DNA of 64,000 bases from Escherichia coli 042 (GCF_000027125.1 NC_017626.1), one strand, 5' to 3'; shown: positions 2,866-20,912, counted from the stretch's first letter. Program-made: numbers and translations. The notes: generated from the letters alone by a model not told the origin.

Positions 2866-4688
2866 TCCCAGGCCTCCTGACTTTCCGTGTTGATGATTTT
2901 CAGACAGTGGTACGAATTGATGCTGGCGTAGAGAGCAAAAAAGTGCGAGAGCACTGTACCAAGAAGATAAATTTCACCTTCGCAGATAAATGGATCGGGA
3001 CGTATCCACAGCGTGGTCGCCAGCCCGCGAACCGGCACGCCTTTAAACAACCTGTCAACAGGTTTGGTTTCGAGTTTTTCTATGGCATCCAGTTTCTGGC
3101 GCGACAGTCTGGCCCGCTGCGGATGGTGAGCGCCTGGCAGGTCGAAGGTCCGCAGGATCTGGATCAGTGTCTCCCTGTCCAGCAGGGATAGGTAGTTCAG
3201 GTTCATCGCGGAAATCAGCGACCAGTGCATGTCGCCGTCCGTGACTGGCCAGAGCGGCTGCGTCGGGCGTGTGACATTATGAAATGAGGCCACCGCCGGG
3301 TTTTTGTTGACGGCCACGCAGATATCGCCGATATGCAGCCGAGCAGGGATCATACGGTTGGTACAGATTAATGACGTGGTGATCACATCATCATTAAACC
3401 GTGAGCTGTCCGGAATGCTGCCGTCCGCATGGACAAAGGCGATACTATGTTCAAGCCCGCGGTGAAACAGGGATGTTTTAGTCCGGTGATGCCAGTAGAC
3501 GACTTCCCGCTGGCGGCTGTACTCCATCTGGTGCTGGAAACTTTCAAATTCGGGCCAGACACGCGCCTGGCTGCCAGGGTTGGATTCAGTACCTGAAACT
3601 TTGACTTTGCTGGTGACTGTGCTTATCTGAAAAATGTCATAAGCGTCGGGATGCCGGTGGCTGGCGCGCAGCGGGTATTCCGCTATCCGCCCATCAGGCC
3701 TGACGGGTTCCGCATAATGCGTAAACAGGTTAATGGCTGGCGTACAGTGCAGACGCAGTGAGTCCCGGCGTAGCTTGATGTCGGCAGGTAACGGGCGGTT
3801 AAAGTGCAGGCGCAGCGTAAACGCGCTGGCCGGGAAATCGTCCGGTAGTGGCGCAACATCGCGCAGATGGAAAAAAAAGAAGGCTTCGGGATAGCAGAAA
3901 TACTCCTGGAGTACCCGATAGCCGCTGTGGACATTTTTCGGCCACGGCAGCAGTGCGTCCTGGTTTTCAAATCCGGCGGCCTCCAGCCACAGATCCGGCA
4001 GCGGCAGGCGGTACTCTCCGGCAATCAGTTCCGCATCCATCAGGCATTCGCAAAACCACAGATAAAGTTGGTGTCGGGTATAATCGTCTTCATTACCCAG
4101 CCAGAACGTTATTTTGTTCAGGTCAAGCATGGCGGGGGAGACATTGTTATCTGCGGTAAAACTGATATCTATGATGCCTTCTTTCAGGCTGCTGGCGTTG
4201 TGGGTGTCGAGAATGCGCAGTGGTTGCAGCCAGATATCGCGCGCCAGCGTGAAATGACAGGCTACGGAAGAAACGATTTTATCATGATTGTCAGACAGCA
4301 CCTTCTGAGCAGCCAGGGCGGACTTTTCTGAGCGGCTTCTGATCAGTTCATTACGGCAGACTTGAACAGGGACTTTTAACTGATCGGTTTTGGGTTCATA
4401 GGCAATAACCGTCATGGCCGGAACTGGGCGTAAATAGTTTGCCCACAGCATACGGATTAGCCCATGGGTGAATTCGGGGAATTCGTCCTCAAGTTTCTGA
4501 CGCAGGCTACCGGACATAAAGGCAAAGGCTTCCATCAGACGCTCCACGTCCGGATCACCCTCTTTCTCGGCCAGAAAGTGGGCCAGATGTGGTTTTTCCT
4601 GCGCCAGCAGTTTGCCAAGCTGGCGAAGATAATCCAGCTCTTCGCGGTAGTAACGTTCTTCAAAAGCCACAGAGATCACTCCACACAA
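2829..4688 (-). CDS. tssF: T6SS baseplate subunit TssF
   Basis: 619-aa ORF, size and order (tssE-tssF-tssG) typical of TssF. Confidence 0.85.
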   Translation of the reverse strand: MCGVISVAFEERYYREELDYLRQLGKLLAQEKPHLAHFLAEKEGDPDVERLMEAFAFMSGSLRQKLEDEFPEFTHGLIRMLWANYLRPVPAMTVIAYEPKTDQLKVPVQVCRNELIRSRSEKSALAAQKVLSDNHDKIVSSVACHFTLARDIWLQPLRILDTHNASSLKEGIIDISFTADNNVSPAMLDLNKITFWLGNEDDYTRHQLYLWFCECLMDAELIAGEYRLPLPDLWLEAAGFENQDALLPWPKNVHSGYRVLQEYFCYPEAFFFFHLRDVAPLPDDFPASAFTLRLHFNRPLPADIKLRRDSLRLHCTPAINLFTHYAEPVRPDGRIAEYPLRASHRHPDAYDIFQISTVTSKVKVSGTESNPGSQARVWPEFESFQHQMEYSRQREVVYWHHRTKTSLFHRGLEHSIAFVHADGSIPDSSRFNDDVITTSLICTNRMIPARLHIGDICVAVNKNPAVASFHNVTRPTQPLWPVTDGDMHWSLISAMNLNYLSLLDRETLIQILRTFDLPGAHHPQRARLSRQKLDAIEKLETKPVDRLFKGVPVRGLATTLWIRPDPFICEGEIYLLGTVLSHFFALYASINSYHCLKIINTESQEAWEWQEKMGQHALI

Positions 4689-5101
4689 TAGCGTTGATGA
4701 TTGTCCAGCAAAATGTCAAATTCAAACACTCCCCTGGTTTCGCTGACATCGACCGTAGCCACAATATGAAAACGTAGTTCCACAGGGGCGTATTCATCCG
4801 GTGCCGCAGCCGTAACAACAACATCGGTAATACGAGGTTCGTAATGTAAAATGCACTGGCTAATGGACTTACGGATTTCTCGTCTGAAATCGCTGGAGGC
4901 CAGCGATTCATCATTTAAATCAGTAATCCCCAGCTCTGGTGAGCCATAACAACTGCCGGAGCGGGTATTCAGGACCTGTCGCAGGTTACGTCTGATGGAA
5001 CGTATCAGTGCTTCTTTTGTATTCTGGTATGAAGGCGGGTTGGCCGCCTCACGAATACGTTCAAAAAGACTGCTGGTTGGCCCTGAATCCCGTCTTTGCA
5101 T
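4676..5101 (-). CDS. tssE: T6SS baseplate subunit TssE (gp25-like)
   Basis: 141-aa ORF immediately after tssC; gp25/GPW-like small protein by size and sequence character. Confidence 0.8.
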   Translation of the reverse strand: MQRRDSGPTSSLFERIREAANPPSYQNTKEALIRSIRRNLRQVLNTRSGSCYGSPELGITDLNDESLASSDFRREIRKSISQCILHYEPRITDVVVTAAAPDEYAPVELRFHIVATVDVSETRGVFEFDILLDNHQRYCVE

Positions 5102-5105
5102 CTGA

Positions 5106-6590
5106 TTATTCCTTATCCAGTCGTCCGACCAGACTCAGGTCGAAACTGGCACCCATGTATTTAAAATGCGGTCTGACAGAAATCGCGACCTGGTACCAGC
5201 CTGGCTCACCATCCACATCAAGTACCTCGATCTTCGCCTGACGTAATGGTCGGTGGCTGCGGACTTCGGCAGGCGGATTCTCCTGGTCGGCCACATACTG
5301 GCGAATCCAGGTGTTCAGCTCACGCTCCAGGTCACTGCGTTCTTTCCATGAGCCAAGCTGTTCGCGCTGAATTACCTTGATGTAATGCGCTAACCTACTG
5401 ATTACAAATAAGTATGGCAGCTGAGTGCCGAGTTTATAGTTGGTCTCCGCAGCCTTGCCTTCGGGGGTTTTGGGGAATTTTTTGGGTTTCTGCACCGAGT
5501 TGGCCGAGAAAAAGCACGCATTATCAGATCCTTTACGCATGGTCAGTGTGATAAAGCCTTCTTCCGCCAGCTCATACTCTCTCCGGTCAGTGATCAACAC
5601 TTCAGTCGGAATTTTTGCCTGCATTTGCCCCATGGATTCATACAGATGCACCGGGAGGTCTTTGACTGCGCCGCCGCTGGAAGGGCCAATGATATTGGGA
5701 CACCAGCGATATTTAGCAAAACTTTCAGCCAGGTTCGCAGCTAGTAAAAACGAGGTGTTCCCCCACAAATAAGACTCGTGACTCTGGCTGACGTCTTCAT
5801 GGTAACGGAAGGTCCTGGCTGGGTTCTCATCTGGCGAGTAAGGGTGACGCAGCAGGAACCGGGGGGCAGTCAGTCCCAGGTAGCGTGAATCTTCAGATTC
5901 ACGCAAGGCACGCCAGCGGGAATAGGCCGGGCCTTCAAAGATTGCTCCTGGTTCTTTGATCCCTGGTAACTCTGTCCATGAGTCCAGACCGAAAAATTCG
6001 GATGATACTGATGAGAGGAACGGGCTGTGCGCCATCGCACTGACCTGGCTGATATATTTCAGCAACTTCATATCCGGCGTGGTGTTCTTAAAGGCAAAGT
6101 TGCCGATTACCGCCGCCACTGGCTCACCGCCAAATTGTCCGTAACCGCTTGAATATACATGCTTGTAATACGCAGACTGCGTGATTTCAGGTGCAAATTC
6201 GAAATCATCCAGCAGTTCTTCCTGAGTGACATTCAGGAAATGGACCTTGATGTTTTCCCGTGTATCCGCGCGTTCAACCAGCAGCTTCAGCGAGCGCAGC
6301 AGGGATTCCAGTTCCTGAAACTCCGGGGCATGAATAATGGCATCCATCTGCCTGCTGGTTCGGGCATCAATATCAGCAATCATGGCGTCAACGGCCAGGA
6401 TATTGATAGGTTCAGCGCTACTGTCGCCCTGTAACATGGCGGCAATAAAGGCGCTCACGCCCTGGCGGGTGATATCGTAGCTTTCTGATTTAGGCTGGAC
6501 GCGGGTTTGCGCCATGATTTCATCAAGCAGAGATGGGGGCGCGGCGGTTTGCGACGCGCTGACGGGAGCAATATCTTCCTTTACTGACAT
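5106..6590 (-). CDS. tssC: T6SS contractile sheath large subunit TssC (VipB)
   Basis: 494-aa ORF following tssB; sheath large-subunit size and conserved character. Confidence 0.9.
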   Translation of the reverse strand: MSVKEDIAPVSASQTAAPPSLLDEIMAQTRVQPKSESYDITRQGVSAFIAAMLQGDSSAEPINILAVDAMIADIDARTSRQMDAIIHAPEFQELESLLRSLKLLVERADTRENIKVHFLNVTQEELLDDFEFAPEITQSAYYKHVYSSGYGQFGGEPVAAVIGNFAFKNTTPDMKLLKYISQVSAMAHSPFLSSVSSEFFGLDSWTELPGIKEPGAIFEGPAYSRWRALRESEDSRYLGLTAPRFLLRHPYSPDENPARTFRYHEDVSQSHESYLWGNTSFLLAANLAESFAKYRWCPNIIGPSSGGAVKDLPVHLYESMGQMQAKIPTEVLITDRREYELAEEGFITLTMRKGSDNACFFSANSVQKPKKFPKTPEGKAAETNYKLGTQLPYLFVISRLAHYIKVIQREQLGSWKERSDLERELNTWIRQYVADQENPPAEVRSHRPLRQAKIEVLDVDGEPGWYQVAISVRPHFKYMGASFDLSLVGRLDKE

Positions 6591-6612: not shown

Positions 6613-7116
6613 TTATTTCTGAGCGGCGATACCCAGTTCTTGGATCAGCTGCTCGCGGCTGTCTTCGTTTTCCAGTAGCGCCTGAAGTTGTGCGCGGAAG
6701 GCCGGAATATTGCCTAGTGGAGACTTAAGTGCGACCAGAGCTTCACGCAATTCGAGCAGACGTTTTATTTCTGGTACCTGGCTGGCAATATGGTCCGGAG
6801 AAAGGTCATCCATAGATTTGACTTTCAGGTTGACGTACATTTGCTCATTGGGAGCGTCACTGAGTTCAGCCGGAACAACAAACTCCCGTTCAATGTCAGC
6901 TTCTGAAATGACTGCGTTGAGGTTATAGCGGTTGATAGCAATGGCAGTTCGCTCGTCCAACGGCGTGTTATCTGGTTTCCCTTTCAGATTGCCGGTGATC
7001 AATAAATTCAGCGGCAATTCGATATCAGCAGCCACCCCATCAACTTTTGGTGTATACCGAACGCTGATTCTTTCTTTCGGCGCGACACTGCCGCCATTGT
7101 TGTTCATTTTGCTCAT
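6613..7116 (-). CDS. tssB: T6SS contractile sheath small subunit TssB (VipA)
   Basis: 167-aa ORF, first gene of the minus-strand operon, divergent from hcp. Confidence 0.9.
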   Translation of the reverse strand: MSKMNNNGGSVAPKERISVRYTPKVDGVAADIELPLNLLITGNLKGKPDNTPLDERTAIAINRYNLNAVISEADIEREFVVPAELSDAPNEQMYVNLKVKSMDDLSPDHIASQVPEIKRLLELREALVALKSPLGNIPAFRAQLQALLENEDSREQLIQELGIAAQK

Positions 7117-7818
7117 AAAAATGTTCCCGTTCAGGCCATGAGCACAGCATTTTCGTACTGCATAAAAATACCGAAGATACCGTTTCAGTGGCAGTTAGAT
7201 AATGTAACCTTCCTTCTGTTGTGATCGGTATTCTACTCATGAAATAAAATATTAAAAGAACTATTTATATTTTAGAAAGAGATGTATTCTTCCTTGCTAA
7301 TATATTATAGTGAAATAAATTTTGGTATTTATAGACTTGATGAATATGATTTTACGGTCAATAAAATGCCATAATATATTGATTTATATGTATTTATTAA
7401 ATTTATTAATAAGTTTTATGTATGGTTTTATCAATTGATTAATTGCTGGCAATACATCATAAGGAATTCCTTTAAGGAATGTCTTAATTGCGTGCTGGAA
7501 CGATGGCTGAGTAAGTGTCGTAATAATTTGTTTTTGACGCGGCTGTGGATTTTTATGGGGGGAAGGATACGTTATGGATAATTCTGCTGTTGAAGTTGAT
7601 ATATTTTTAGCTTATGTGACCGTGTTCTGAAATTGACTAAAAATATATTTAAACACCATAAAAGAGTTTTTCAGTAGGTGCTAATTACGTGTGCCTGTAA
7701 CTCGAATAAAGAAAAGGGTGTGGTTCCTGATGTGAGCCGCATCACACTCTAACCCGTCGGGGATTAACGACGGGTTGTTCGTAAAACAGCAGTTGATAAT
7801 TTCACAAGGAGTTCATAA
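7117..7818. promoter_or_regulatory. AT-rich ~700 bp divergent control region between tssB and hcp
   Basis: No credible ORF; very low GC compared with flanking genes; contains a single GATC (about 7224) and the palindrome AAGGAATTCCTT (about 7463-7474); must hold promoters for both divergent operons. Confidence 0.5.
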
Positions 7819-8337
7819 ATGCCAACCCCATGTTACATTTCAATTACAGGTCAGACCCAGGGGAACATCACTGCCGGTGCTTTCACCGCAGATTCTGTCG
7901 GCAATATCTACGTGCAGGGACACGAAGATGAAATGCTGGTGCAGGAGTTTCTGCATAACGTTACTGTTCCAACCGATCCACAGTCTGGTCAACCTTCCGG
8001 GCAGCGCGCGCACAAACCGTTCATTTTCACCGTGGCGCTGAACAAAGCCGTTCCGCTGCTGTACAACGCGCTGGCCTCCGGTGAAATGCTGCCGAAAGTG
8101 GAGCTGCACTGGTGGCGTACTTCAGTTGAAGGCAAGCAGGAGCACTACTTCACCACACGTCTTACTGACGCGACGATTGTGGACATGAACCTGCACATGC
8201 CGCACTGCCAGGACCCTGCACAGCGTGAGTTTACGCAATTGCTCGCAGTATCACTGGCATACCGTAAGGTTGAGTGGGAGCACATCAAATCCGGTACTTC
8301 TGGTGCCGATGACTGGCGTGCACCGCTGGAAGCATAA
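7819..8337 (+). CDS. hcp: T6SS inner tube protein Hcp
   Basis: 172-aa ORF with Hcp-family character; RBS AAGGAG 8 nt upstream; strong terminator downstream. Confidence 0.9.
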   Translation: MPTPCYISITGQTQGNITAGAFTADSVGNIYVQGHEDEMLVQEFLHNVTVPTDPQSGQPSGQRAHKPFIFTVALNKAVPLLYNALASGEMLPKVELHWWRTSVEGKQEHYFTTRLTDATIVDMNLHMPHCQDPAQREFTQLLAVSLAYRKVEWEHIKSGTSGADDWRAPLEA

Positions 8338-8348
8338 ATCTGAGTCAA

Positions 8349-8385
8349 CAACATCCTGCCTTCGTGCAGGATGTTGTTTTTGTAC
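8349..8385 (+). terminator. Rho-independent terminator after hcp
   Basis: Stem ACAACATCCTGC / GCAGGATGTTGT with 6-nt loop followed by TTTTT. Confidence 0.6.
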
Positions 8386-8557
8386 GTGTAAAAAATGAGT
8401 GTCAGTAAGGAGTTACGCTTTCATGAGGGAGATGGCGGATGCCGGAAACCCGGGCGGTAGCGTACCTGAAAATGTAAAGATGAGTGTAACGCTGCACTGG
8501 CACCCTTTGCTGCATGGTAAGAATCATTTGGTCCGTGAATAAATCAGGGAGGTCATT

Positions 8558-10516
8558 ATGTCCTTAAAAGGTCTGCGCTTTACGCTGGAGATTGACGGCC
8601 AGGAGCCGGACACCTTTGCAGTGGTGCATTTCAGGTTAATCCAGAACCAGTCTTATCCGTTTGTGATGAGTGTGGATGTTGCCAGCGACTCTTTTATGCA
8701 GACGGCGGAGATGCTGCTGGAGAAGAAGGCGACGCTGACCATCTGGCAGGGCGTCATCCCGCTGCGTTATGTCACCGGCGTGGTGGCGGGTTTTGGCATG
8801 CAGGAGAACAATGGCTGGCAGATGCGTTATCACCTGCGTATTGAGCCGCCGTTATGGCGGTGCGGGCTGCGGCAGAACTTCCGTATCTTCCAGCAGCAGG
8901 ATATCCGGACGATATCGGCCACGTTACTGAACGAGAACGGCGTCACGGAGTGGACACCGCTGTTTTATGAGGACCATCCGGCGCGGGAGTTCTGTGTCCA
9001 GTACGGGGAAAGCGACCTGGCGTTTCTGGCGCGGTTGTGGGCGGAGGAGGGAATTTTCTTCTTTGAGCGGTTTGCGGCGGACAGTCCGGAGCAGAAGCTG
9101 ACGCTGTGCGACGATGTGGCGGGGCTGTCACAGGCGGGAGAGCTTCCGTTTAACCCGGACACATCGGCAGGAGCGGAGACAGAGTGTGTCAGTATGTTCC
9201 GTTATGAGGCGTATGTCCGCCCGTCGTCGGTGCAGAGCCAGGATTACACGTTTAAGGTGCCGGACTGGCCGGGGATGTATGAGCAGCAGGGTGAGAACCT
9301 GAACGGACAGCTGGAGCAGTATGAGATATTTGATTATCCGGGAAGGTTCAAGGATGAACAGCACGGCAAGGATTTCACGCTGTACCAGATGGAGAGCCTG
9401 CGCAGTGATGCGGAAAAGGCCACAGGGCAGAGTAATTCACCGAAGCTGTGGCCGGGAACGCGGTTTACGCTGACGGGGCATCCGCAGAAGATGCTGAACC
9501 GTGAATGGCAGGTGGTACAGAGTATTCTGTCAGGGGACCAGCCGCAGGCGCTGCACGGCAGCCAGGGGAGAGGAACCACGCTGGGAAATCAGTTAGAGGT
9601 GATACCGGCGGACCGGACGTGGCGTCCACGGCTGCAAAGCAAACCGAAGGTGGACGGGCCACAGAGCGCCATTGTCACCGGTCCTGCGGGAGAGGAAATC
9701 TTCTGCGACGAACACGGACGTGTGCGAGTGCAGTTTCACTGGGACAGGTATAACCCGGCAACGGAGGCGAGTTCATGCTGGGTGAGGGTGTCGCAGGCGT
9801 GGGCGGGGCCGGGATTTGGTAACCTGGCGATACCGCGCATCGGCCAGGAAGTGATTGTAGACTTCCTGAACGGCGACCCGGACCAGCCGATAATCATGGG
9901 GCGGACGTACCATGAGGACAACCGTTCGCCGGGGAGTCTGCCGGGGACGAAGACGCAGATGACGATACGGTCGAAGACCTATAAAGGAAGCGGCTTTAAT
10001 GAACTGCGGTTCGAGGACGCGACGGACAAGGAAGAAATTTACCTGCACGCACAGAAAAATATGCAAGTCGTTGTGCTGAACAGCAAGGATAAGCGGGTCA
10101 ACTATGACCGGACGGTCAGCATCGGGCATGATGAATCCCTGGTGGTGGCAAATGACCGGAAAGTGACGGTTGAAGGTAAACAGGACCATAAAACCACCAA
10201 AGACCATGTCAGCCTGACAGAGGGCAATCAGGGGCTGGAGGTGAAAGGCGATCTGGCACAGAAAATAAGCGGCGCGCTGGGTATCAGCGTACAGGGCGAT
10301 ATTGTTTTACAGAGCGACAGCAAAATCAGTCTGCGGGTGGGCGGTTCATTTGTGGTGATCCATTCCGGCGGCGTGGATATTAAGGGCGCGAAAATCAATC
10401 TTAACGGCGGAGGCAGTCCGGGAGACGTGATCCTGCCGATGCGCCCGGTGATCCTGAAAGCCGCAGCCGGAAGCGGGACAATGTTTGTGGCGCACTGCCC
10501 GAAGGAGGATAAGTGA
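8558..10516 (+). CDS. vgrG: T6SS spike protein VgrG (core gp27/gp5-like, no long C-terminal extension)
   Basis: 652-aa ORF with VgrG character including the C-terminal repetitive beta-helix region (VVLNSKDKRVNYDRTVSIGHDESLVVANDRKVTVEG...). Confidence 0.9.
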   Translation: MSLKGLRFTLEIDGQEPDTFAVVHFRLIQNQSYPFVMSVDVASDSFMQTAEMLLEKKATLTIWQGVIPLRYVTGVVAGFGMQENNGWQMRYHLRIEPPLWRCGLRQNFRIFQQQDIRTISATLLNENGVTEWTPLFYEDHPAREFCVQYGESDLAFLARLWAEEGIFFFERFAADSPEQKLTLCDDVAGLSQAGELPFNPDTSAGAETECVSMFRYEAYVRPSSVQSQDYTFKVPDWPGMYEQQGENLNGQLEQYEIFDYPGRFKDEQHGKDFTLYQMESLRSDAEKATGQSNSPKLWPGTRFTLTGHPQKMLNREWQVVQSILSGDQPQALHGSQGRGTTLGNQLEVIPADRTWRPRLQSKPKVDGPQSAIVTGPAGEEIFCDEHGRVRVQFHWDRYNPATEASSCWVRVSQAWAGPGFGNLAIPRIGQEVIVDFLNGDPDQPIIMGRTYHEDNRSPGSLPGTKTQMTIRSKTYKGSGFNELRFEDATDKEEIYLHAQKNMQVVVLNSKDKRVNYDRTVSIGHDESLVVANDRKVTVEGKQDHKTTKDHVSLTEGNQGLEVKGDLAQKISGALGISVQGDIVLQSDSKISLRVGGSFVVIHSGGVDIKGAKINLNGGGSPGDVILPMRPVILKAAAGSGTMFVAHCPKEDK

Positions 10517-11355
10517 TGGAAACGGCACCCGTGCAGTACGCCATTGTGGATGGCGCTGTGGAGGAAGGATTGCTGGATTTTCTGAACGAGGTGAATCCCC
10601 CGCACTGTTGTCTGTATGCAGAACCCATACAACTGGATCTGGTCGCGCTAGCCCCCTATCTCGTGGAAGTCGTTCCGGAGGTTGAAGCATGGCTGAGTGT
10701 TAAGGCGTCGCCATGGGGAATATATCTGACTTCTGAGTCATCCATGCGTGAGCTACAGCAACACTTCAGACGTTATCTGTGGGTTAGGATCCCCGAACAG
10801 GAGAAACCTGTTCTCATGCGATTTTATGATCCCCGGAATATATGGGTATTAGTGGAAGTTCTGACCCCCCGCCAGCGTCTTTCTTTTATCAGTCCCGTCA
10901 GACAGCTAAGTACCCGTTATGGTGAAGAATGTCGTGAGGATAATTTTTCTTCCGTCCGTCCCGCAGAAACTATGAATATAAGGGCAGAACGGCCATCACA
11001 ACTGACGCTGAGTTACAGACAATATAGCCAACTGGAACGAAAGGCACGGGATAATTATCTTGATATATTATCTGCATTTATCGAAGAAAATGTAGATAAA
11101 AACGGATGGGATGATTCATCAAAAGCTGAATCATCCCGAATTCTGGCAGAAGATTATTTCTCTTTTTGCCAGTCATTAAATATAGCAGATGATCGTTCCG
11201 TCAGAACAATGACGCTTATATTACTGAAAAAAAATATAATCGATCTCAGATATATTCCGGATGACTGGTATGAACAACTCAGCAATCAGTCATACCCGGG
11301 ACATATTCGGGTACATGAACTTGCACAACAGGAACTGGGATTTATCCCACAATAA
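10516..11355 (+). CDS. DUF4123-family T6SS effector adaptor/chaperone
   Basis: Start overlaps the vgrG stop; sequence character (YAIVDGA...LAPYLVE...LMRFYDPRN) matches DUF4123 adaptors that load cargo onto VgrG. Confidence 0.75.
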   Translation: METAPVQYAIVDGAVEEGLLDFLNEVNPPHCCLYAEPIQLDLVALAPYLVEVVPEVEAWLSVKASPWGIYLTSESSMRELQQHFRRYLWVRIPEQEKPVLMRFYDPRNIWVLVEVLTPRQRLSFISPVRQLSTRYGEECREDNFSSVRPAETMNIRAERPSQLTLSYRQYSQLERKARDNYLDILSAFIEENVDKNGWDDSSKAESSRILAEDYFSFCQSLNIADDRSVRTMTLILLKKNIIDLRYIPDDWYEQLSNQSYPGHIRVHELAQQELGFIPQ

Positions 11356-11376
11356 AAAGACAAACGGATAGATTAT

Positions 11377-12948
11377 ATGACATCTCCATCTTCGACAGCC
11401 GGAAAGCCCTGTGTGGAATGCGGCATTCCTGATCCATGTATTTTTGATGTTATTAGTGATTTTCCAGAGGCCGGCGAGAAACATTTCTGGTCAAAAGAAG
11501 GAGTGGCGCGTTTTAAGCTACTGGATGATGGTTCCGGATGTGATGGTATAATTACCATTACCTACCAGTGCGATAAAAGTGGAACACATGAGGCATGGTT
11601 AGAGGAAGAATCAGAAAATAATCATAAGATACTGCAACCTTTCGGAATACCTAATAAGGTCACTTTGGATGATAACTTGTCTGAAGGTGAAATAATTGCT
11701 ATGGGTACATTTCGAGTACCATGGGATTATTTGGGGGCAATATCCTCTCCACTTAAGAATCATTATGAACCTGCCCATTATTCAGTCAGAATTGACAGTT
11801 GTTACGAATGTGGCAATTATGTTGAAATTGATGTTTATCCTACAGTGGAAATTAGGTTTACTACAGGGTTCAGCTATGAGATTTCGTCATCAAAACAGAC
11901 GAGAACAGTAAAAGAGCGGCGTGACGAAAGAATAAAAGCCAGGGACGCAATGGAGAACACCAAGCCCAGGGATAAAAATAAACTCCGTAGCGGCTGGACA
12001 AATACCACTGCTGAGTTTGAGTGGATAAACAAGACTTCCCTGACTGTCGATTTTGGCGTAAAAATAGCTAATGTTGAACACACAAGTGAATATGAAAAAG
12101 AGATAAAAAAACTTCGACAAACAAAGCAACTGGAACAGATAGGAAGAATTGACTCTCTGGTCAAGAATGTCAATAAATATTTTGCGCCAGATCCTGACAA
12201 TAATAATGGTACGCGCAAATATGCATTGTTCAGTGCAAAAATAGAACCCGTTAAACTGGGTATATCGTATGCCTATCAATATACCGATATCCAGGATGGC
12301 CCCTGTCATTTTTATGGTTTGTTTGGTGCCCCATTTTTTGAAGCGTCGTTCAGATTCGATATTATTTCATTTATATGTGCATATTGTAAAGTCGAGTCAT
12401 TGGTCAACAGATGTCGTGAATATCTCCGTAAAAACGGAGCCAGTGTTGAATGCTATATCGAGATTTCAGCGGAGATTAATCTTGATCTTGGCGCAGTATA
12501 CGCTGAAAAGGATAAAAAATGGGAGTTTAATGTAAAGGAAAGTAACATCAAGCTCGGTTTAAAAGGTGTGGTGAGTGCGACGTTTGAGGCGAATGTTTTT
12601 GTTGTACAACTGACCGCCGAAGCGACTGCCTCTATAGAAGCGAAAGCTGGATTTGGATTTGATTCACATGATGACGGACTGGACCTAGCATTATTTCATG
12701 ACGGCATTAAAGGGAAGTTTGAATTTAAGATTGATGTGTCTCATGGTGAAGTTGATGAAAAAGGAAAGGGGAAGGAAAAGAGCGAAAAACCTGAGAAGAA
12801 AGATACCGTTGAGTGGCAGTTATGTGATCCTATGGAGGTAAAGGATTCACCATTACGGGTTAATTTATACGGTAAAGAACGCACTGTGGAGAAAAAAGTA
12901 ACACCGCCGAAGCCAGTGACAACGTGGACGATAGGTATGGATTATTAA
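11377..12948 (+). CDS. Candidate VgrG-delivered T6SS effector, family not recognised
   Basis: 523-aa AT-rich ORF immediately after vgrG and DUF4123; Cys-rich N-terminus (CVECGIPDPC), Lys/Glu-rich C-terminus; no GxSxG or HxKxxxxD motif seen. Confidence 0.45.
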   Translation: MTSPSSTAGKPCVECGIPDPCIFDVISDFPEAGEKHFWSKEGVARFKLLDDGSGCDGIITITYQCDKSGTHEAWLEEESENNHKILQPFGIPNKVTLDDNLSEGEIIAMGTFRVPWDYLGAISSPLKNHYEPAHYSVRIDSCYECGNYVEIDVYPTVEIRFTTGFSYEISSSKQTRTVKERRDERIKARDAMENTKPRDKNKLRSGWTNTTAEFEWINKTSLTVDFGVKIANVEHTSEYEKEIKKLRQTKQLEQIGRIDSLVKNVNKYFAPDPDNNNGTRKYALFSAKIEPVKLGISYAYQYTDIQDGPCHFYGLFGAPFFEASFRFDIISFICAYCKVESLVNRCREYLRKNGASVECYIEISAEINLDLGAVYAEKDKKWEFNVKESNIKLGLKGVVSATFEANVFVVQLTAEATASIEAKAGFGFDSHDDGLDLALFHDGIKGKFEFKIDVSHGEVDEKGKGKEKSEKPEKKDTVEWQLCDPMEVKDSPLRVNLYGKERTVEKKVTPPKPVTTWTIGMDY

Positions 12949-13014
12949 GTGATATTACAGAAATTAAAAGTGAACAGTATAATGAGTATTTTCCCCTTTT
13001 GAGAGAGAATAATT

Positions 13015-14025
13015 ATGAAGGCAAAACATTTAATATCGGTTATTTTACTGTCAGGAGTTGTTATGGGAACTGGATTTTGCTCTAACGATAACCAGCAAAA
13101 AATTCGCAGTAAGTTTAATATTGAAGAGTCATATTGTGCCATTAAGACTAATGGCGTCCTCGGGTTCAGTAACCGAAGAAGTGCCTGGCGGGCAAATGGT
13201 GATTCAACCGGGGCCATATCCAGCACCAATGCCATGATGCTGATGGCGAATGGAGAAAATGAAATCAGTCTGGAGATTGGGGCATTAGGATGGTTTTCTG
13301 ACAAGCCTGCCAGTATGGAAGAACGGGGGCGTTTTTTTCCAAAAGCAGGATGCAGCCTGGATTTGGTTCGTTTTATTAAACAGGAGGAAACGCTGCTTTC
13401 TTCAATAAAAGTGACCATCAACCAGCAGGGCATACCTGAAGCCCGGCCAGACAGCGTGCATCCCGTTATCCGGAAAGAGATTTTGGCTGAGCAGGCGGAG
13501 CCAGGATTTATTGATCCAGATTATTTTGATGAAACCTATTTCCCGAAAGGGATGAAGGTGTATCAGTTCACTCAAAAAGTTACCGTGACAGGGCTTCCTG
13601 AATGGGCCTGGACGCGGGCAACCCCCTATACCGGAAGCGACGAGCAGTTACGGAAGTTAAAAGCCGCCTATACCGAAATGGCAAGCATCATCAGTAGCCG
13701 GGACAGGGCACGTCTGAAAGCTTATAACAAAGAGGCGCTGAAGGCATGGTCAGCCACAACCGGTGACTCTGAGGATGACATATTACTCTCACTCTTCTCA
13801 AAAGATAATGTGGAGGGAGGGAAAGCCAGAATGCAGCCCATCAGGTGGGACGATTATGCCGTCCGGGTTATGAATGGTGGACGTATGGTGCAGCTATATA
13901 ATAAATCGAAACCAATATATTCCCCACTGACTTACCGTTTTACAGATGAAAGTGGTGAAGAGCGTATGGGGTATTACGCTCCGGTATTTTCGCTGATTGA
14001 TGGTCAGTTTATCCCTGTTACTTGA
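13015..14025 (+). CDS. Exported protein, candidate cognate immunity protein
   Basis: 336-aa ORF with N-terminal signal peptide and a Cys after the hydrophobic core (MGTGFC); sits directly downstream of the candidate effector. Confidence 0.4.
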   Translation: MKAKHLISVILLSGVVMGTGFCSNDNQQKIRSKFNIEESYCAIKTNGVLGFSNRRSAWRANGDSTGAISSTNAMMLMANGENEISLEIGALGWFSDKPASMEERGRFFPKAGCSLDLVRFIKQEETLLSSIKVTINQQGIPEARPDSVHPVIRKEILAEQAEPGFIDPDYFDETYFPKGMKVYQFTQKVTVTGLPEWAWTRATPYTGSDEQLRKLKAAYTEMASIISSRDRARLKAYNKEALKAWSATTGDSEDDILLSLFSKDNVEGGKARMQPIRWDDYAVRVMNGGRMVQLYNKSKPIYSPLTYRFTDESGEERMGYYAPVFSLIDGQFIPVT

Positions 14026-14098: not shown

Positions 14099-14334
14099 AA
14101 ATTTTTTGTCGCTGATATTCCAGACAGGAAAACAATATGCCTTTAGCTGCCAGATTAAACGACAAAGGTACCGGCACAGGGAAAGATCACGTAACGCTGC
14201 TTTTTTGTACTAAATAATTCGCATTTTATGTTTAAAATTTGAGATATTCCTCATTACCTGAGGCTGTTTTTTATTACTTATACATGATCAAATACTCCTT
14301 ACATAATTAAGGGGAACAAAATGGAACTTAAAAA

Positions 14335-15262
14335 TTGATGGAACATATTTCTGTTATTCCCGATTACAGACAAGCCTGGAAAGTGGAACATAAATTGTCG
14401 GATATTCTACTGTTGACTATTTGTGCCGTTATTTCGGGTGCAGAAGGTTGGGAAGATATAGAGGATTTTGGGGAAACACATCTCGATTTTTTAAAACAAT
14501 ACGGTGATTTTGAAAATGGTATTCCTGTTCACGATACCATCGCCAGAGTTGTATCCTGTATCAGTCCTGCAAAATTTCACGAGTGCTTTATTAACTGGAT
14601 GCGAGATTGCCATACTTCAGATGATAAAGACGTCATCGCAATTGATGGAAAAACGCTCCGGCACTCTTATGACAAGAGTCGCCGCAGGGGAGCGATTCAT
14701 GTCATTAGTGCGTTCTCAACAATGCACAGCCTGGTCATCGGACAGATCAAGACGGATGAGAAATCCAATGAGATTACAGCTATCCCAGAACTTCTTAACA
14801 TGCTGGATATTAAAGGAAAAATCATCACAACTGATGCGATGGGTTGCCAGAAAGATATTGCAGAGAAGATACAAAAACAGGGCGGTGATTATTTATTCGC
14901 TGTAAAAGGAAATCAGGGGCGGCTTAATAAAGCCTTTGAGGAAAAATTCCCACTGAAAGAATTAAATAATCCAGAGCATGACAGTTACGCAATGAGTGAA
15001 AAGAGTCACGGCAGAGAAGAAATCCGTCTTCATATTGTTTGCGATGTCCCTGATGAACTTATTGATTTCACGTTTGAATGGAAAGGACTGAAGAAATTAT
15101 GCGTGGCAGTCTCCTTTCGGTCCATAATAGCAGAACAAAAGAAAGAGCCAGAAATGACGGTCAGATATTATATCAGTTCTGCTGATTTAACCGCAGAGAA
15201 GTTCGCCACAGCAATCCGAAACCACTGGCACGTGGAGAATAAGCTGCACTGGCGTCTGGACG
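14335..15262 (+). CDS. ISAs1-family transposase, exon 1 (reading frame interrupted by the group II intron)
   Basis: Near-identical to the intact copy-B transposase up to ...HWRLD; one base fewer than copy B in the A-run near the start codon region. Confidence 0.8.
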
Positions 15263-17153
15263 GTGTGCCGCAGGAACACAAGATAGCTGCATAAGGATAC
15301 GCAGTTAGCTTTTGTATAAGCTCATAAAGAGATGGTGGAAGGCCCACCGGGATCGGCTGTCGGAAGCAGATTCCAAACCACTTCATGCTGCTGTGGTAAA
15401 GAGCCATGGTAGTGAGCGATGAAGTAAAGCGTGAGTGAAAACTCAGCAGGTAAGATACTCATGAGACGAGTGAACCCGAACCCATGTTGACGCGTCGTAA
15501 ACCAGAGACTGACATCAAAACCGAAGGGGCGTCCAGCCTTCGGGATAAGTCTGCGAGTGAATTCCGAATGCTGCGCAGACGGTGTCCGGCGTAAAGTGGG
15601 CGTGACGGAGTATCAGGCTCTTCCTGGGAACTGCGGGAACCTGTCGTTGTGATGATAAGGGAGAAATGCAAGTCACTGAATTGGCGAGCATGAAAGTACC
15701 GATGCACAGCACAGGGACGGAGCCGTTCGTAGTAGTGATGAAGCTTCTGTAATGGAGGTGGAGCGAAGGGGCGGCATCAGACAGTCTTTGGACAGTGTTC
15801 AACTGAACATGTTCAGGAGGAGACAATGACAAAGACAAAAGCGTTTAACATTGATAAGTCACTGGTGGTCAGCGCGTACAGGCGAGTGAAGACCAGTGCA
15901 GGCGCGGCGGGAATTGATAAGCAATCGCTGGCGGACTTTGATAAACGGTTAGTTGATAATCTGTACAAAATCTGGAACCGACTTTCTTCAGGAAGTTATT
16001 TCCCACCGGCAGTGAAAGCGGTGGCAATTCCGAAGAAATTGGGTGGAGAGAGAATTCTGGGTATCCCGACAGTCAGCGATCGTATCGCGCAGACGGTGGT
16101 AAAACTGGCCTTTGAGCCACAGGTTGAGCCACATTTTCTGGCAGACTCTTACGGCTACAGACCGAATAAATCGGCACTGGATGCTATAGGGGTAACGCGT
16201 AAGCGTTGCTGGTATTACGACTGGGTACTGGAATTTGACATCAAAGGGCTGTTCGATAACATCCCGCACGAACTGATAATGAAAGCCGTGGACAAACACA
16301 ATCCGGCCCGGTGGGTAAAATTGTATATACAGCGGTGGCTGACAGCGCCGATGGTGATGTCAGACGGAGAAGTCAGAGCACGAACAATGGGAACGCCGCA
16401 GGGAGGTGTCATAAGTCCGTTGCTGGCAAACCTGTTCATGCATTATGTGTTTGATAAATGGCTGGCAAAATATTATCCGAAAGTGCCGTGGTATCGATAT
16501 GCTGATGATGGCATTTTGCATTGTCACAGCGAAGCAGAAGCGACTGAAATGCGAGAAGTATTACGCAAAAGATTTAGCGAATGCGGACTGGAAATGCATC
16601 CGGAGAAAACGCGAGTTATCTACTGCAAAGATGGAAGCCGGAAGGGTGATTATGAACATACCATGTTCGACTTTCTGGGGTACACATTCAGGCGACGCGT
16701 AGTAAAGAACGTTAAGCGAAACAGTCTGTTTGTAAGTTTTACCCCCGCAGCGAGCAAATCAGCGCTAAAGGCAATGCGTCGGGAAATCAAAGCGACAGGG
16801 ATAAGGAAAAGAGTGGATTTAAGCATTGAGCAGATAGCGAAATGGATAAATCCAAAACTGAATGGCTGGATAAATTATTACGGGCGATATACCTGTTCGG
16901 AATTATACAGCGTGTTCAGATATATCAATAAAGCACTGGTGAGGTGGGGGCGTAAGAAATATAAAATGCTCAGCCGATACAAGACAAGAGCCTCAAAATT
17001 TCTGGAAGAAATGGCGAAGCGAAGTCCACAGTTGTTTGCCCACTGGCGTCTGAAGATGAGAGGCGGACTTGTTTGATGGGAGCGGTATGAGCCGAGAGGT
17101 TCACGTACCGTTCTGCGAGAGGCTGCGGGGGAGGTTCCTGCGGCCTACTCACC
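15263..17153 (+). mobile_element. Group II intron, same orientation as the host transposase gene
   Basis: Exactly fills the gap between the copy-A junction CTGGACG|TGGTAATG and the uninterrupted copy B; starts GTGTG; encodes an RT/maturase; a domain V-like hairpin (GAGCCGAGAGGTTCACGTACCGTTC) lies near the 3' end. Confidence 0.8.
15826..17076 (+). CDS. Group II intron-encoded reverse transcriptase/maturase
   Basis: 416-aa ORF with RT motifs ([10 protein letters not shown], the YADD box in [12 protein letters not shown]) and a C-terminal maturase-like region. Confidence 0.9.
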
Positions 17154-17347
17154 TGGTAATGAATGAAGACGACTGCAAAATAAGAAGAGGAAATGCAGCA
17201 GAATTATTTTCAGGGATACGGCACATCGCTATTAATATTTTGACGAATGATAAGGTATTCAAGGCAGGGTTAAGACGTAAGATGCGAAAAGCAGCCATGG
17301 ACAGAAACTATCTGGCGTCAGTCCTTGCGGGGTGCGGGCTTTCGTAA
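17154..17347 (+). CDS. ISAs1-family transposase, exon 2 (C-terminal segment)
   Basis: Translation [64 protein letters not shown] matches the C-terminus of copy B. Confidence 0.75.
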
Positions 17348-17378
17348 TCTTTCCCTGGATGTGAAAAGCAGCTGCGGA

Positions 17379-18669
17379 CAGGGAAAGATCATCAGAAGTA
17401 CACTTTTTGTACTAAACAATTCGCATTTTATGTTTAAAAATTGAGATATTCCTCATTACCTGAAGCTGTTTTTTATTGCTTATACATGATCAAATACTCC
17501 TTACATAATTAAGGAGAACAAAATGGAACTTAAAAAATTGATGGAGCATATTTCTATTATCCCCGATTACAGACAAGCCTGGAAAGTGGAACATAAATTA
17601 TCGGATATTCTACTGTTGACTATTTGTGCCGTTATTTCTGGTGCAGAAGGTTGGGAAGATATAGAGGATTTTGGGGAAACACATCTCGATTTTTTGAAGC
17701 AATATGGTGATTTTGATAATGGTATTCCTGTTCACGATACCATTGCCAGAGTTGTATCCTGTATCAGTCCTGCAAAATTTCACGAGTGCTTTATTAACTG
17801 GATGCGTGACTGCCATTCTTCAGATGATAAAGACGTCATTGCAATTGATGGAAAAACGCTCCGACACTCTTATGACAAGAGTCGCCGCAGGGGAGCGATT
17901 CATGTCATTAGTGCGTTCTCAACAATGCACAGCCTGGTCATCGGACAGATCAGGACGGATGAGAAATCTAATGAGATTACAGCTATCCCTGAACTTATTA
18001 ACATGCTGGATATTAAAGGAAAAATCATCACAACTGATGCGATGGGTTGCCAGAAAGATATTGCAGAGAAGATACAAAAACAGGGAGGTGATTATTTATT
18101 CGCTGTAAAAGGAAACCAGGGGCGGCTAAATAAAGCCTTCGAGGAAAAATTTCTGCTGAAAGAATTAAATAATCCAGAGCATGACAGTTACGCAATTAGT
18201 GAAAAGAGTCACGGCAGAGAAGAAATCCGTCTTCACATTGTTTGCGATGTCCCTGATGAACTTATTGATTTCACGTTTGAATGGAAAGGTCTGAAGAAAT
18301 TATGCGTGGCAGTCTCCTTTCGGTCAATAATAGCAGAACAAAAGAAAGAGCCCCAAATGACGGTCAGATATTATATCAGTTCTGCTGATTTAACCGCAGA
18401 GAAGTTCGCCACAGCAATCCGAAACCACTGGCACGTGGAGAATAAGCTGCACTGGCGTCTGGACGTGGTAATGAATGAAGACGACTGCAAAATAAGAAGA
18501 GGAAACGCAGCAGAATTATTTTCAGGGATACGGCACATTGCTATTAATATTTTGACGAATGATAAGGTATTCAAGGCAGGGTTAAGACGTAAGATGCGAA
18601 AAGCAGCCATGGACAGAAACTACCTGGCGTCAGTCCTTGCGGGGAGCGGGCTTTCGTAATCTTGCCCTG
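17379..18669 (+). mobile_element. ISAs1-family (H-repeat) insertion sequence, copy B (intact)
   Basis: Same terminal inverted repeats as copy A; single uninterrupted transposase ORF. Confidence 0.8.
17523..18659 (+). CDS. ISAs1-family (H-repeat-associated) transposase
   Basis: 378-aa ORF; recognised H-repeat protein family. Confidence 0.9.
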
Positions 18670-18778
18670 GTACAGTAAACAAACGAAAGTTGTTATTTCA
18701 ATGGTCAGGGCAAGAGCATGAAGTGTTTACTACACACTATGCTCTTGTCCTGGAGTCAGGTCTTGTTTGGAGGGATAA

Positions 18779-19282
18779 ATGGTAGATATTGTCGAGGCCG
18801 ATAAAACGGATATTTATTTCATTCAGGAGAGTGTTTATGGCAAAATCGGGTTGCCAGCTTTTGGTAATACAATAGGACCATCCGCACAGCAAGTTGTTAA
18901 AAAGGTATTCGCTGTCGTTAAAGAACGAGATAAGACACATGCAAAACAGAGATTATTGTTGGAATATAATGGTAACAAACTCTGGATGAATGCTATTGAT
19001 GGCAGTGAAGCTATCCTACCAACAGAATTTTCTAAGCGATACGAACTTTCATTATTTAATACTACTAATTTTGGAGAAGATCCTTTTCCTGATGTTAATT
19101 TATATAATAATATGAAATCAAGTTTTTTTGTAAGGTTTGGTGGAACATCCCATCCCGAGGCTTGGGCTATTTATAATGCAAGTACGAAAGAGGTTAAATA
19201 TATAGAAACTGCAAGAGAAATTGATAAAATATTCAGTGATTTTAACTTGAGTGGTACATTGCCAATTCACATTGGTCGATGA
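18779..19282 (+). CDS. Hypothetical protein (AT-rich orphan ORF)
   Basis: 167-aa ORF in a low-GC segment between the IS copies and the IS remnant; no recognisable motif. Confidence 0.3.
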   Translation: MVDIVEADKTDIYFIQESVYGKIGLPAFGNTIGPSAQQVVKKVFAVVKERDKTHAKQRLLLEYNGNKLWMNAIDGSEAILPTEFSKRYELSLFNTTNFGEDPFPDVNLYNNMKSSFFVRFGGTSHPEAWAIYNASTKEVKYIETAREIDKIFSDFNLSGTLPIHIGR

Positions 19283-19348
19283 TTTTTTAAATTGTGTGAT
19301 TAAATAATTGAACATTAATGATGATTTATAGCATTATTATTCTATAAC

Positions 19349-19861
19349 ATGAATAAACGGATTGAATGTGTTATGTTAAAAATAAGTTTATACGTAATAA
19401 TATTGTTATTTTCCTTTCAGATTAGTGCAGCCATTACTAGCAAGGAAAGTGAGGTTGTTTCACCATTATTAATGGATGTTAATTCTTCACTAACAATGGA
19501 AAATATTTCTGAATTATCCACATCATCGGAACCATCGCAACAGGGGGTATTTCCTGTAATATGTACTCGACTTCATCCTGGCTCCGTAATGAAACGCCAG
19601 TTATTAACCGGCTGGGGGCCTGTTTTTATAATTGGTGATGATCCTTTTTCTCTGCGCTGGATGAGTGAACATCTGGAGATCCTTAAATCGCTAAATGCCC
19701 TTGGTTTGGTTGTTAATGTTGAATCAGTAGAACGAATGGAGGTATTACAGCAGCGGGCTGATGGGTTATTGTTATTGCCAGTTATCTGCGATAATTTCGT
19801 GCAAACTCTGCAATTAAATGCTTATCCGGTATTAATCACAGAGATGGAAATATCACAATGA
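19349..19861 (+). CDS. Hypothetical secreted protein; C-terminal motif resembles an integrating-conjugative-element protein family
   Basis: 170-aa ORF with N-terminal signal peptide; FIIGDD...GLVVNVESVE...YPVLIT recalled as typical of the PFL_4695-type ICE protein family (from memory, unverified). Confidence 0.35.
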   Translation: MNKRIECVMLKISLYVIILLFSFQISAAITSKESEVVSPLLMDVNSSLTMENISELSTSSEPSQQGVFPVICTRLHPGSVMKRQLLTGWGPVFIIGDDPFSLRWMSEHLEILKSLNALGLVVNVESVERMEVLQQRADGLLLLPVICDNFVQTLQLNAYPVLITEMEISQ

Positions 19862-19889
19862 TTAATAACATAATTACTGCAAATAATAT

Positions 19890-20105
19890 CGTAATTTTGA
19901 AAATGGTAATCCTGTTCACGGCACCATAATTAGAGTTATGTCTTGTATCCGTTCAGTATAATTTCACGAATGCTTTATTAACTGGATGCGAGATTGCCAT
20001 TCATCAAATGATAAAGACGTCATCGCAATTGATGGAAAAGCGCTTCCACACTCCTATGATAAAAGTGGTCGCAGGGGAGCGGGCTTTCGTAGTCTTAGCC
20101 CGACT
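19890..20105 (+). mobile_element. Internally deleted ISAs1-family remnant
   Basis: Transposase codons about 60-120 (ENGNPVHGTI...[24 protein letters not shown]) fused directly to the IS right end CGGGCTTTCGTAGTCTTAGCCCG. Confidence 0.6.
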
Positions 20106-20132: not shown

Positions 20133-20912
20133 TCACCACAACCTAAACTCATCCGCATCCCGCCATGCCGGAAACTTTTCTCTATATTCCCGCAATGCCG
20201 CCATCGACAGCTCCGCATCAATGCGCGTTGCCTGATGCGCGTCGGCGGTGGCGATAATCTCGCCCTGTGGATTAATCACCCGGCTGTCACCGCGATAATG
20301 GCAGCCGTTGCCATCGCTGCCGACGCGATTGCATCCCGCCACATACGCTTGATTCTCAATCGCGCGGGCCGTCAGCAATGCCTGCCAGTGCAGAGAGCGC
20401 GGAGCCGGCCAGTTGGCGACGTACAGGGCGAGGTCGTAATCGTTGAGATTGCGCGACCACACAGGAAAACGTAAGTCGTAGCACACCAGCGGCAAAATAC
20501 GCCAGCCGCGCCATTCCACAATCACTCGCGCATTGCCCGCTTTATAATGCAGATGCTCATCTGCCATGCGGAACAGATGACGCTTATCATAAAAATGTAC
20601 CGTGCCGCCTGGCTCAACCAGCAAAAAGCGGTTAACCGAACCAGACTCCGTTTGTAATGCAACACTGCCTGCAATCAGCGCATTGCACTGCTGCGCTTTG
20701 GCTGTCATCCAGTTCACTACGTCATCTTGTGCTAGCGACGAAGCTGCCGCTTCCATGGCAAAGCCGCTGGTAAACATCTCCGGTAGAACGATCACATCGC
20801 GTCCGGTAATATCTTCCAGTTGACGATCAAAATGACGCAGGTTGGCAGGACCATCCATCCACACCAGTGGTTGCTGCAAAAGCGTAATCTTCAAACCAGG
20901 CACGGTGTACAA
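20133..20912 (-). CDS. yafV: Omega-amidase / carbon-nitrogen hydrolase family protein YafV
   Basis: 259-aa ORF recognised as E. coli YafV (nitrilase-superfamily). Confidence 0.9.

Follow-up and report, generated by a model that had tools for sequence, protein, structure and literature searches.

The window, by which we mean the whole stretch of 64 000 nucleotides of the Escherichia coli 042 chromosome that was analyzed, holds a T6SS island followed by the core genes yafV-ivy-fadE; between the two lies a pair of small genes, ORF1 and ORF2. Annotation of this region was drawn from strain 118UI, which is 99.9% identical here (PGAP). The genes are arranged in the order tssK...tssB, hcp, vgrG, DUF4123 adaptor, 523-aa protein and 320-aa protein, continuing with a PAAR fragment, ISAs1 copy A, ISEc1, ORF1-ORF2, an IS remnant and yafV. 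The features for which we give coordinates are on the plus strand, with the exception of yafV.

The T6SS cargo region upstream of the pair (7819..14025) was delineated from its ORFs and from the annotation of strain 118UI. It contains hcp (7819-8337), vgrG (8558-10516; a pseudogene according to the annotation of the near-identical strain 118UI), the DUF4123 adaptor gene (10513-11355), the gene of a putative effector of 523 aa (11377-12948) and the gene of a putative immunity protein of 320 aa (13063-14025). Next is what the cut by IS copy A has left of a PAAR gene, its first 13 codons (14137..14176, MPLAARLNDKGTG in translation); for comparison, the intact PAAR protein of the Enterobacter locus L008 starts with MPTAARLNDKGTQHDG... 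ISAs1 copy A (14177..17356) is in turn interrupted by a group II intron with ltrA (15826-17076).

The left flank of the pair is formed by an intact ISEc1 of the ISAs1 family, copy B (17380..18668), with terminal inverted repeats and a transposase ORF at 17523-18659 (seen in the sequence, the repeat families and the PGAP annotation). On the right the pair is flanked by an internally deleted ISAs1/ISEc1 remnant (~19881..20101), in which approximately IS positions 317-517 are fused to the last ~28 bp of the element (repeat families D1 and D5) and which PGAP calls a pseudogene. The first core gene, yafV (20133..20912, minus strand), marks the island boundary.

Two ORFs of low GC content between IS copy B and the IS remnant had been predicted from the sequence, and both are indeed present: GC content is 34.7% in ORF1 and 37.9% in ORF2 versus ~50-58% in the flanking core genes. 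The two genes lie on one strand, a gene for a signal-less protein followed by a gene for an exported one, with an intergenic gap of 90 bp to the ORF2 start at 19373 or 66 bp to an upstream ATG at 19349. We found no conjugation, ICE or T4SS genes within 20 kb on either side of the pair and no hidden ORF for a small membrane protein within 18660-19990. A promoter and terminator scan of the locus gave matches at no more than chance level.

ORF1 and its relatives

ORF1 (18779..19282) encodes a protein of 167 aa and 18.9 kDa, a putative small T6SS cargo effector. A Shine-Dalgarno sequence, GGAGGG (18769..18774), is read 4 nt 5′ of the ATG; its GGAG core is kept in all four alleles of the gene (described below), and the full GGAGGG in the three E. 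coli alleles. The protein is soluble, with no cysteine, no signal peptide and no transmembrane segment (maximum KD19 value 0.51).

ORF1 had no match in Pfam, NCBIfam, the PADLOC defense-system models or PDB sequences, and the same was true for ORF1 together with 20 members of its family in Pfam and NCBIfam. No effector marker or toxin domain (MIX, FIX, PAAR, Rhs or a known Tox domain) was recognized in it. The AF2 model (pLDDT 84.8, pTM 0.80) is mostly beta and has no significant structural neighbor in PDB. Weak Foldseek matches to the epsilon-toxin/aerolysin fold (probability 0.02, TM ~0.1) were regarded as noise. A diverged SLT-type lytic transglycosylase was first suspected from the motif ES...GPSAQQ...AIYNAS; this possibility was ruled out, as neither S18 nor Y132 is conserved and structure comparison gave no lysozyme-like match, and a comparison with the SLT lytic transglycosylase of ICEs by hhalign (probability 0.1%) shows the two to be unrelated.

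In an exhaustive HMMER search of 1.84 billion proteins we observed 31 representative relatives of ORF1 at E≤1e-3, none of them annotated. The description of the two ORFs as orphans thus holds for ORF1 in that its family is unannotated, though not in the strict sense. Of the searches that had been proposed, by HMM and by structure, those with ORF2 led to a known family and fold, while those with ORF1 led to no known domain or structural neighbor. Members of the ORF1 family are mostly ~190 aa long; ORF1 and its close alleles represent a short form with ~27 residues fewer. Conserved in the family are a near-invariant Glu17 and the motifs GNTxGPS, GxDPxPxxxLYxN and GGxxxPxA. A search for related loci with a narrow family alignment found only Escherichia whittamii.

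The genomic context of the family is variable. One relative is situated 16 bp downstream of an orphan hcp; another directly follows tssB-tssC within a T6SS core cluster, where its neighbor is a gene for a 145-aa four-helix (4-TM) membrane protein and then an array of effector/immunity-like genes. In Serratia marcescens, Pantoea agglomerans, Morganella morganii and a soil bacterium the family appears in isolated cassettes, consisting of a gene for an ORF1-family protein of 193-196 aa, then, with an overlap or a short gap, a gene for a polytopic membrane protein of 141-157 aa and often, after it, a gene for a DUF805 protein. Linkage to hcp, vgrG, PAAR or the T6SS cluster is seen in the window and the homologous loci, and several relatives, from Serratia, Pantoea and Morganella, adjoin no T6SS gene. 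Most ORF1 relatives are paired with a 4-TM membrane protein, not with a DUF2859 protein. The conserved three-gene module of ORF1-family protein, membrane protein and DUF805 protein could serve another function.

ORF2, a DUF2859 protein outside an ICE

ORF2 (19373..19861) encodes a putative periplasmic immunity protein of 162 aa belonging to the PFL_4695/DUF2859 family. The original prediction had the gene at 19349-19861, where an ORF of 170 aa does exist; its ATG is probably 8 codons too early, since the start at 19373 is conserved across alleles and chosen by PGAP, and the upstream ATG runs into a stop codon in allele L007. The ICE-protein-like motif noticed in ORF2 was borne out by significant similarity over the full length of the family profile: the match to TIGR03765 (ICE_PFL_4695) has E=2.2e-35 and 120.6 bits at profile positions 1-105 of 105, and the match to Pfam PF11072 (DUF2859) has 99.5 bits, with curated cutoffs of 59.75 and 25 bits, respectively. 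The signal peptide noticed in it is likewise supported. The predicted Sec signal peptide (MLKISLYVIILLFSFQISA|A, 19373..19429), located by hydropathy and an AXA-like site, has an N-terminal hydrophobic core (residues 4-22, mean Kyte-Doolittle value 2.07) and, after it, ISA|A.

The rest of the protein is largely a thioredoxin-like domain (residues ~57-162, 19541..19858), modeled at pLDDT >90 over residues 60-162, with a low-confidence linker in front. This secreted domain has no CxxC; the CxxC position is occupied by G-D-D-P-F-S. In the DUF2859 family this position carries the invariant G-D-D-x-x-S-x-x-W, and YPVLI is the motif of the cis-Pro loop. ORF2 shares both motifs with the family and keeps every residue that is invariant in the ICE proteins, including D90, S93 and W96 at the thioredoxin ‘active-site’ position.

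A published point of comparison is Orf71178 of ICEclc, a DUF2859 protein for which an SPI signal peptide and a fold like that of thiol-disulfide oxidoreductases are predicted; its gene sits between iceD4 and the VirB1-like iceB1 (PMC10018362). A functional Orf71178-mCherry fusion localizes to the cell envelope, and deletion of the gene reduces ICEclc transfer only ~10-fold (PMC10018362). Orf71178 is the only member of the family with a known contribution to conjugative transfer. In genuine Salmonella ICEs (L002-L004) the genes upstream of DUF2859 encode a lipoprotein, a thioredoxin-like protein with CxxC and a lytic transglycosylase of the SLT type; the genes for the coupling protein T4CP and the remainder of the MPF-G T4SS come downstream. 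In ICEs, DUF2859 always has its place after the VirB1-like transglycosylase.

Similarly to Orf71178/PFL_4695, ORF2 has a signal peptide and a ~105-residue thioredoxin-like domain with no CxxC. Its surroundings are different: ORF2 is not part of an MPF-G operon between a VirB1-like lytic transglycosylase and a coupling protein, with neither of these nor other tfc/ice genes next to it, and, unlike its ICE homologues, the ORF2 found at T6SS island ends is always preceded by a gene of the ORF1 family. The protein also differs from the ICE proteins in that it has no N-terminal ‘ADLGG..S..P.FE’ motif and has two clade-specific cysteines, Cys64 and Cys139. A neighbor-joining tree built on the C-terminal domain groups the T6SS-linked DUF2859 proteins in a single clade, adjacent to that of the enterobacterial ICEs. 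The N-terminal ‘ADLGG’ of the ICE proteins is lost in this clade and Cys139 is shared by its members; Cys64 is present in ORF2 of the window, P0004, P0007 and P0016 and absent from P0020.

TraF and TrbB of the F plasmid are, as are the members of the family of ORF2, periplasmic thioredoxin-fold proteins from conjugation operons. TraF, too, is not known to have a CxxC motif. Still, no sequence similarity to ORF2 was detected and the MPF type is different. The ICEclc study, too, likens Orf71178 to thioredoxin-fold T4SS proteins of the TraF/TrbB type (PMC10018362). Our literature search returned nothing relevant on the protein accessions or on a thioredoxin-like T6SS immunity protein.

Alleles, distribution and selection

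The pair of ORF1 with a DUF2859 gene recurs in at least four diverged alleles. Two of them, besides that of the window, occupy the yafV locus in E. coli: the L010-L012 type, with 95% (ORF1) and 90% (ORF2) amino acid identity to the window, and the L005-L007 type, with 68% and 76%. Upstream of the L010-L012 type are Tox-PAAR-like/GHH2 effector-immunity genes together with a HEAT-plus-thioredoxin pair, and the L005-L007 type has the same upstream genes. An orphan immunity paralogue (342 aa versus 348 aa) lies just upstream in other alleles of the locus. The Enterobacter/Lelliottia allele from metagenomic contigs L008 and L009 (59% for ORF1, 49-52% for ORF2) is found at a different chromosomal site, downstream of both hcp-vgrG-DUF4123-538aa-313aa-PAAR, which repeats the gene order of the window, and a frameshifted N-terminal remnant of vgrG. 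In a further allele, L027 (ORF2 47%; the ORF1 identity was not compared), a truncated fragment of a long-form ORF1-family gene lies directly 5′ of the DUF2859 gene. The conservation of the neighborhood, proposed as a check of the original prediction, is thus evident: the two genes have stayed side by side in diverged alleles from two genera, and in E. coli their position beside yafV is fixed.

The IS elements are placed differently from allele to allele, upstream only in L010, downstream only in L007 and on neither side in L008. Since their positions differ among strains, the IS elements must have arrived later and were not the vehicle of the pair.

Pairwise dN/dS was 0.18-0.30 in ORF1 and 0.26-0.59 in ORF2, with dS reaching about 1.4. 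With dN/dS well under 1, both genes are maintained by selection.

We found some part of the region in 758 of the 5426 complete E. coli genomes and the whole intact pair in 553 of the 5426 (~10%), the carriers including the ExPEC/APEC strains 536 and IMT5155 and ST1193 isolates. Occurrences of the pair on a ‘plasmid’ are chromosomal records that were mislabeled. In a few E. coli genomes ORF1 is interrupted by IS1. About 200 E. coli genomes have the ORF2 region only (96.8% identity), with ORF1 absent. In SCU-112, the one inspected out of these ~200, ORF2 has a 1-bp deletion and two stop codons, ORF1 is gone, and a T1SS/adhesin island, with an IS630 fragment at its end, takes the place of the T6SS island. 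The decay of ORF2 in genomes with no ORF1 is probably one lineage-level event.

A proposed effector and immunity protein, and other explanations

The pair is a conserved and selected unit at the end of a T6SS island and very probably not mobile-element debris. As to what it does, we would give a probability of about one half to an effector-immunity pair, with ORF1 as the small cargo effector of the T6SS and ORF2, derived from an accessory protein of ICE T4SS, as the immunity protein against it in the periplasm; a role in T6SS immunity is the leading idea for ORF2.

In such a case, ORF1, a soluble protein of ~19 kDa residing in the cytoplasm of the producer, would be exported by the T6SS, probably as cargo of the Hcp type, given its size and the existence of an hcp-adjacent relative. 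It would be delivered into the periplasm of neighboring cells and would act on the envelope or on the outer face of the inner membrane. The Sec pathway would carry ORF2 into the periplasm, both in the producer and in its kin, where ORF2 would bind and neutralize incoming ORF1. Joint inheritance and joint decay of a cytoplasmic and a periplasmic protein are understandable chiefly if the two come together once the first has been injected into the periplasm of a sister cell. ORF1 would then act in the periplasm or on the outer face of the inner membrane, a location at which a four-helix membrane immunity protein could work as well. With vgrG called a pseudogene in strain 118UI and the PAAR gene destroyed by an IS, the module may no longer be deliverable in this particular strain.

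Proven pairs of a similar build are known. Ssp6/Sip6 and Ssp4/Sip4 are Hcp-dependent effector-immunity pairs of Serratia marcescens (PMC6889166, PMC12669606), and there, as in the ORF1 pair and in the cassettes, a gene for a small soluble protein with no recognizable domain is followed by a gene for an envelope protein. The variable context of the ORF1 family (beside an orphan hcp, in a T6SS cluster or unlinked) and its enterobacterial distribution also resemble those of the Ssp6 and Ssp4 pairs. Effector markers or toxin domains are not obligatory for Hcp cargo effectors, Ssp6 being an example (PMC6889166). The likeness is one of organization: we found no relation in sequence or fold that would place ORF1 in the families of Ssp6 or Ssp4, and the immunity proteins differ. 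Ssp6 and Ssp4 are alpha-helical pore formers (PMC6889166, PMC12669606), whereas the ORF1 model is mostly beta; their type of partner is a membrane protein, whereas the partner of ORF1 in E. coli is a soluble periplasmic thioredoxin-fold protein; and these effectors are experimentally proven, whereas ORF1 is a putative one. Moreover, as the usual partner of ORF1 relatives is a 4-TM protein, the immunity role of ORF2 is argued from its position rather than from homology to immunity proteins.

On this reading ORF2 does not descend from a typical family of immunity proteins; it belongs to a clade of the CxxC-less DUF2859/PFL_4695 accessory protein of ICE conjugation systems of the MPF-G type. This clade would have departed from the ICE, lost the ADLGG motif, gained two cysteines and become fixed beside ORF1, and in the E. 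coli clade the DUF2859 protein may have taken the place of the membrane partner usual for the ORF1 family. We propose tentatively, and at somewhat less than even odds, that a single exaptation within Enterobacterales turned DUF2859 into the immunity protein of an undescribed T6SS cargo-effector family, the four-helix membrane immunity protein being ancestral and swapped.

The pair might be associated with the T6SS and yet consist of something other than effector and immunity protein, with ORF2 a periplasmic thioredoxin-fold helper of assembly or folding serving an envelope process and the ORF1 family non-toxic partners of membrane proteins. We regard this as unlikely, while noting that several observations agree with it: no toxin-like fold was found for ORF1; Orf71178 of ICEclc is an accessory factor and not a toxin antidote (PMC10018362); in Serratia and Pantoea the three-gene modules with DUF805 have fixed places in the chromosome that are not near T6SS genes; and the retention of all DUF2859-invariant residues in ORF2 could mean that it performs an ancestral biochemical role rather than that of a simple binder. 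One could add that the ORF1 family, with its 4-TM and DUF805 companions, might be accessory or hitch-hike in T6SS islands. However, ORF1 in the cytoplasm and ORF2 in the periplasm would not meet within one cell, and still they are co-inherited and decay together. The relatives directly beside hcp and inside the T6SS core cluster also speak against a helper, as does the order of genes, a soluble protein and then a membrane or periplasmic protein, which is the canonical layout of effector and immunity genes.

The proposal that the two genes are an orphan immunity gene pair, one product cytoplasmic and the other (as predicted for ORF2) periplasmic, directed against effectors of other strains, seems to us improbable. 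Ends of T6SS and Rhs islands are indeed known to accumulate orphan immunity genes, and the paralogue just upstream in other alleles of this very locus is an evident one. Yet ORF1 looks like the effector partner: its relatives are the first genes of isolated, stand-alone cassettes with no toxin gene upstream. Strict pairing over four alleles and two genera would be unexpected for independent immunity genes, and an orphan immunity gene should remain useful after the loss of ORF1 and the T6SS, whereas ORF2 then decays.

Still less probable is the other suggestion of the original prediction, that the genes are debris of a degraded mobile element, taken here as an ICE or another element trapped between IS copies and no longer functional. 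The family of ORF2 is otherwise known from T4SS operons of ICEs, the GC content is low, IS elements flank the pair, and ORF2 is a pseudogene in the group of ~200 genomes without ORF1 (in the one inspected). Nevertheless, no other ICE gene occurs within the 20 kb on either side and ORF1 is not an ICE gene, being unrelated to the ICE transglycosylase; dN/dS well below 1 at dS of ~1.2-1.5 indicates purifying selection; 553 E. coli genomes, and Enterobacter as well, carry the ORFs intact; and the strain-to-strain variation of IS positions makes the IS elements latecomers. Finally, the intact ISEc1 upstream and the ISEc1 remnant downstream, in equal orientation, could be taken for the ends of a composite transposon with the pair as its cargo, but the chance of this is very slight, as IS elements are one-sided in L010 and L007 and absent in L008, the site next to yafV is fixed in E. 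coli, no IS-bounded unit was seen at different locations or in different strains, and the ‘plasmid’ matches proved to be chromosomal.

Returning to the effector-immunity reading, the family and the fold of ORF2 are already known, while it is new that, at the ends of T6SS islands, ORF2 is constantly coupled with a protein family lacking annotation. New as well are the proposal that the ORF1 family is a new effector family and the apparent exaptation from T4SS to T6SS. At present PGAP labels the pair ‘hypothetical protein’ and ‘integrating conjugative element protein’, and the latter label misleads predictors of ICEs and mobile elements at this locus.

Should ORF1 be an effector, it would represent a new family, with no structural neighbor in PDB, extending over Serratia, Pantoea, Morganella, Enterobacter and environmental bacteria, and it would give a hint at the function of DUF2859 in ICEs, where, given its place after the VirB1-like transglycosylase, DUF2859 may be a ligand or a regulator of a periplasmic lytic protein. 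The DUF2859 partner would then be an example of how an immunity protein can be drawn from an unrelated secretion machine. The exaptation, if true, would be a documented transfer of a component from conjugation machinery to interbacterial warfare, and a replacement of the immunity type within a single effector family.

The interrupted PAAR gene and the left flank

The PAAR gene of the T6SS island is represented in the window by its first 13 codons (MPLAARLNDKGTG, 14137-14176). Its last base directly adjoins IS copy A, an ISAs1-family element (14177-17356), at the left inverted repeat, and as the gene beyond codon 13 is missing, the island of the window is left without its terminal PAAR. Copy A is itself split by a group II intron, which carries ltrA for a 416-aa reverse transcriptase/maturase (15826-17076), and this nested insertion abuts a second, intact element, the ISEc1 at 17380-18668. 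In strain 118UI, which is nearly identical, the upstream vgrG is likewise annotated as a pseudogene.

Two other E. coli alleles of the pair, L007 and L010, carry upstream of it (7380-9040 and 3974-5649, respectively) a gene for a conserved HEAT-like protein of 411-419 aa, together with a gene for a cytoplasmic thioredoxin of 137-139 aa with a WCNNC motif; these two genes of the L007 and L010 T6SS islands are missing from the window.

Genomic contexts of ORF1 relatives

Relatives of ORF1 were seen in a conserved three-gene module, in which the ORF1-family protein (∼193 aa) is accompanied by a four-helix membrane protein (141-157 aa) and a DUF805 membrane protein. The module lies at 8001-9380 in the Serratia marcescens loci L022-L024, at 7001-8330 in the Pantoea agglomerans loci L028/L029 and at 3452-4926 in locus L014; the chromosomal sites of these modules are fixed. 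Another relative sits between tssC and impE in a metagenomic T6SS core cluster (L021, 8600-13100), followed by about eight small genes. Several products of this array have a signal peptide, one protein of 126 aa is possibly amidase-like, as judged by eye, and the tssC-impE array has the look of a hotspot for effector and immunity genes.

The pair or an ORF1 relative was also matched in PLSDB 'plasmid' records NZ_CP141089.1, NZ_LN868946.1, NZ_CP010208.1 and NZ_CP061330.1. At least two of these are evidently chromosomal sequence, NZ_CP141089.1 because of its size of 4.9 Mb and NZ_LN868946.1 because it contains rpoBC and the thi operon. NZ_CP010208.1 and NZ_CP061330.1 (56 kb and 127 kb) were both typed as non-mobilizable. 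A Salmonella record among the matches holds a frameshifted ORF1-family remnant flanked by sseK1 and rpoC.

ORF2 remnants and the spacer repeat

About 200 E. coli genomes without ORF1 retain the ORF2 region alone, at 96.8% identity. In SCU-112, the one genome of the ∼200 that was examined, ORF2 (L025, 9001-9534) is frameshifted, has two stop codons and adjoins an IS630 fragment, with a T1SS/large-adhesin island where the T6SS island would be; PGAP still calls a 66-aa 'PFL_4695 family' CDS at this remnant.

The spacer between ORF1 and ORF2 in L010 contains ∼12 tandem copies of GATTAAAC (about 7850-7950), while the equivalent site of the window (19290-19315) holds essentially one degenerate copy. 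The array is a variable-number repeat located shortly upstream of the ORF2 start, and it could influence ORF2 expression.
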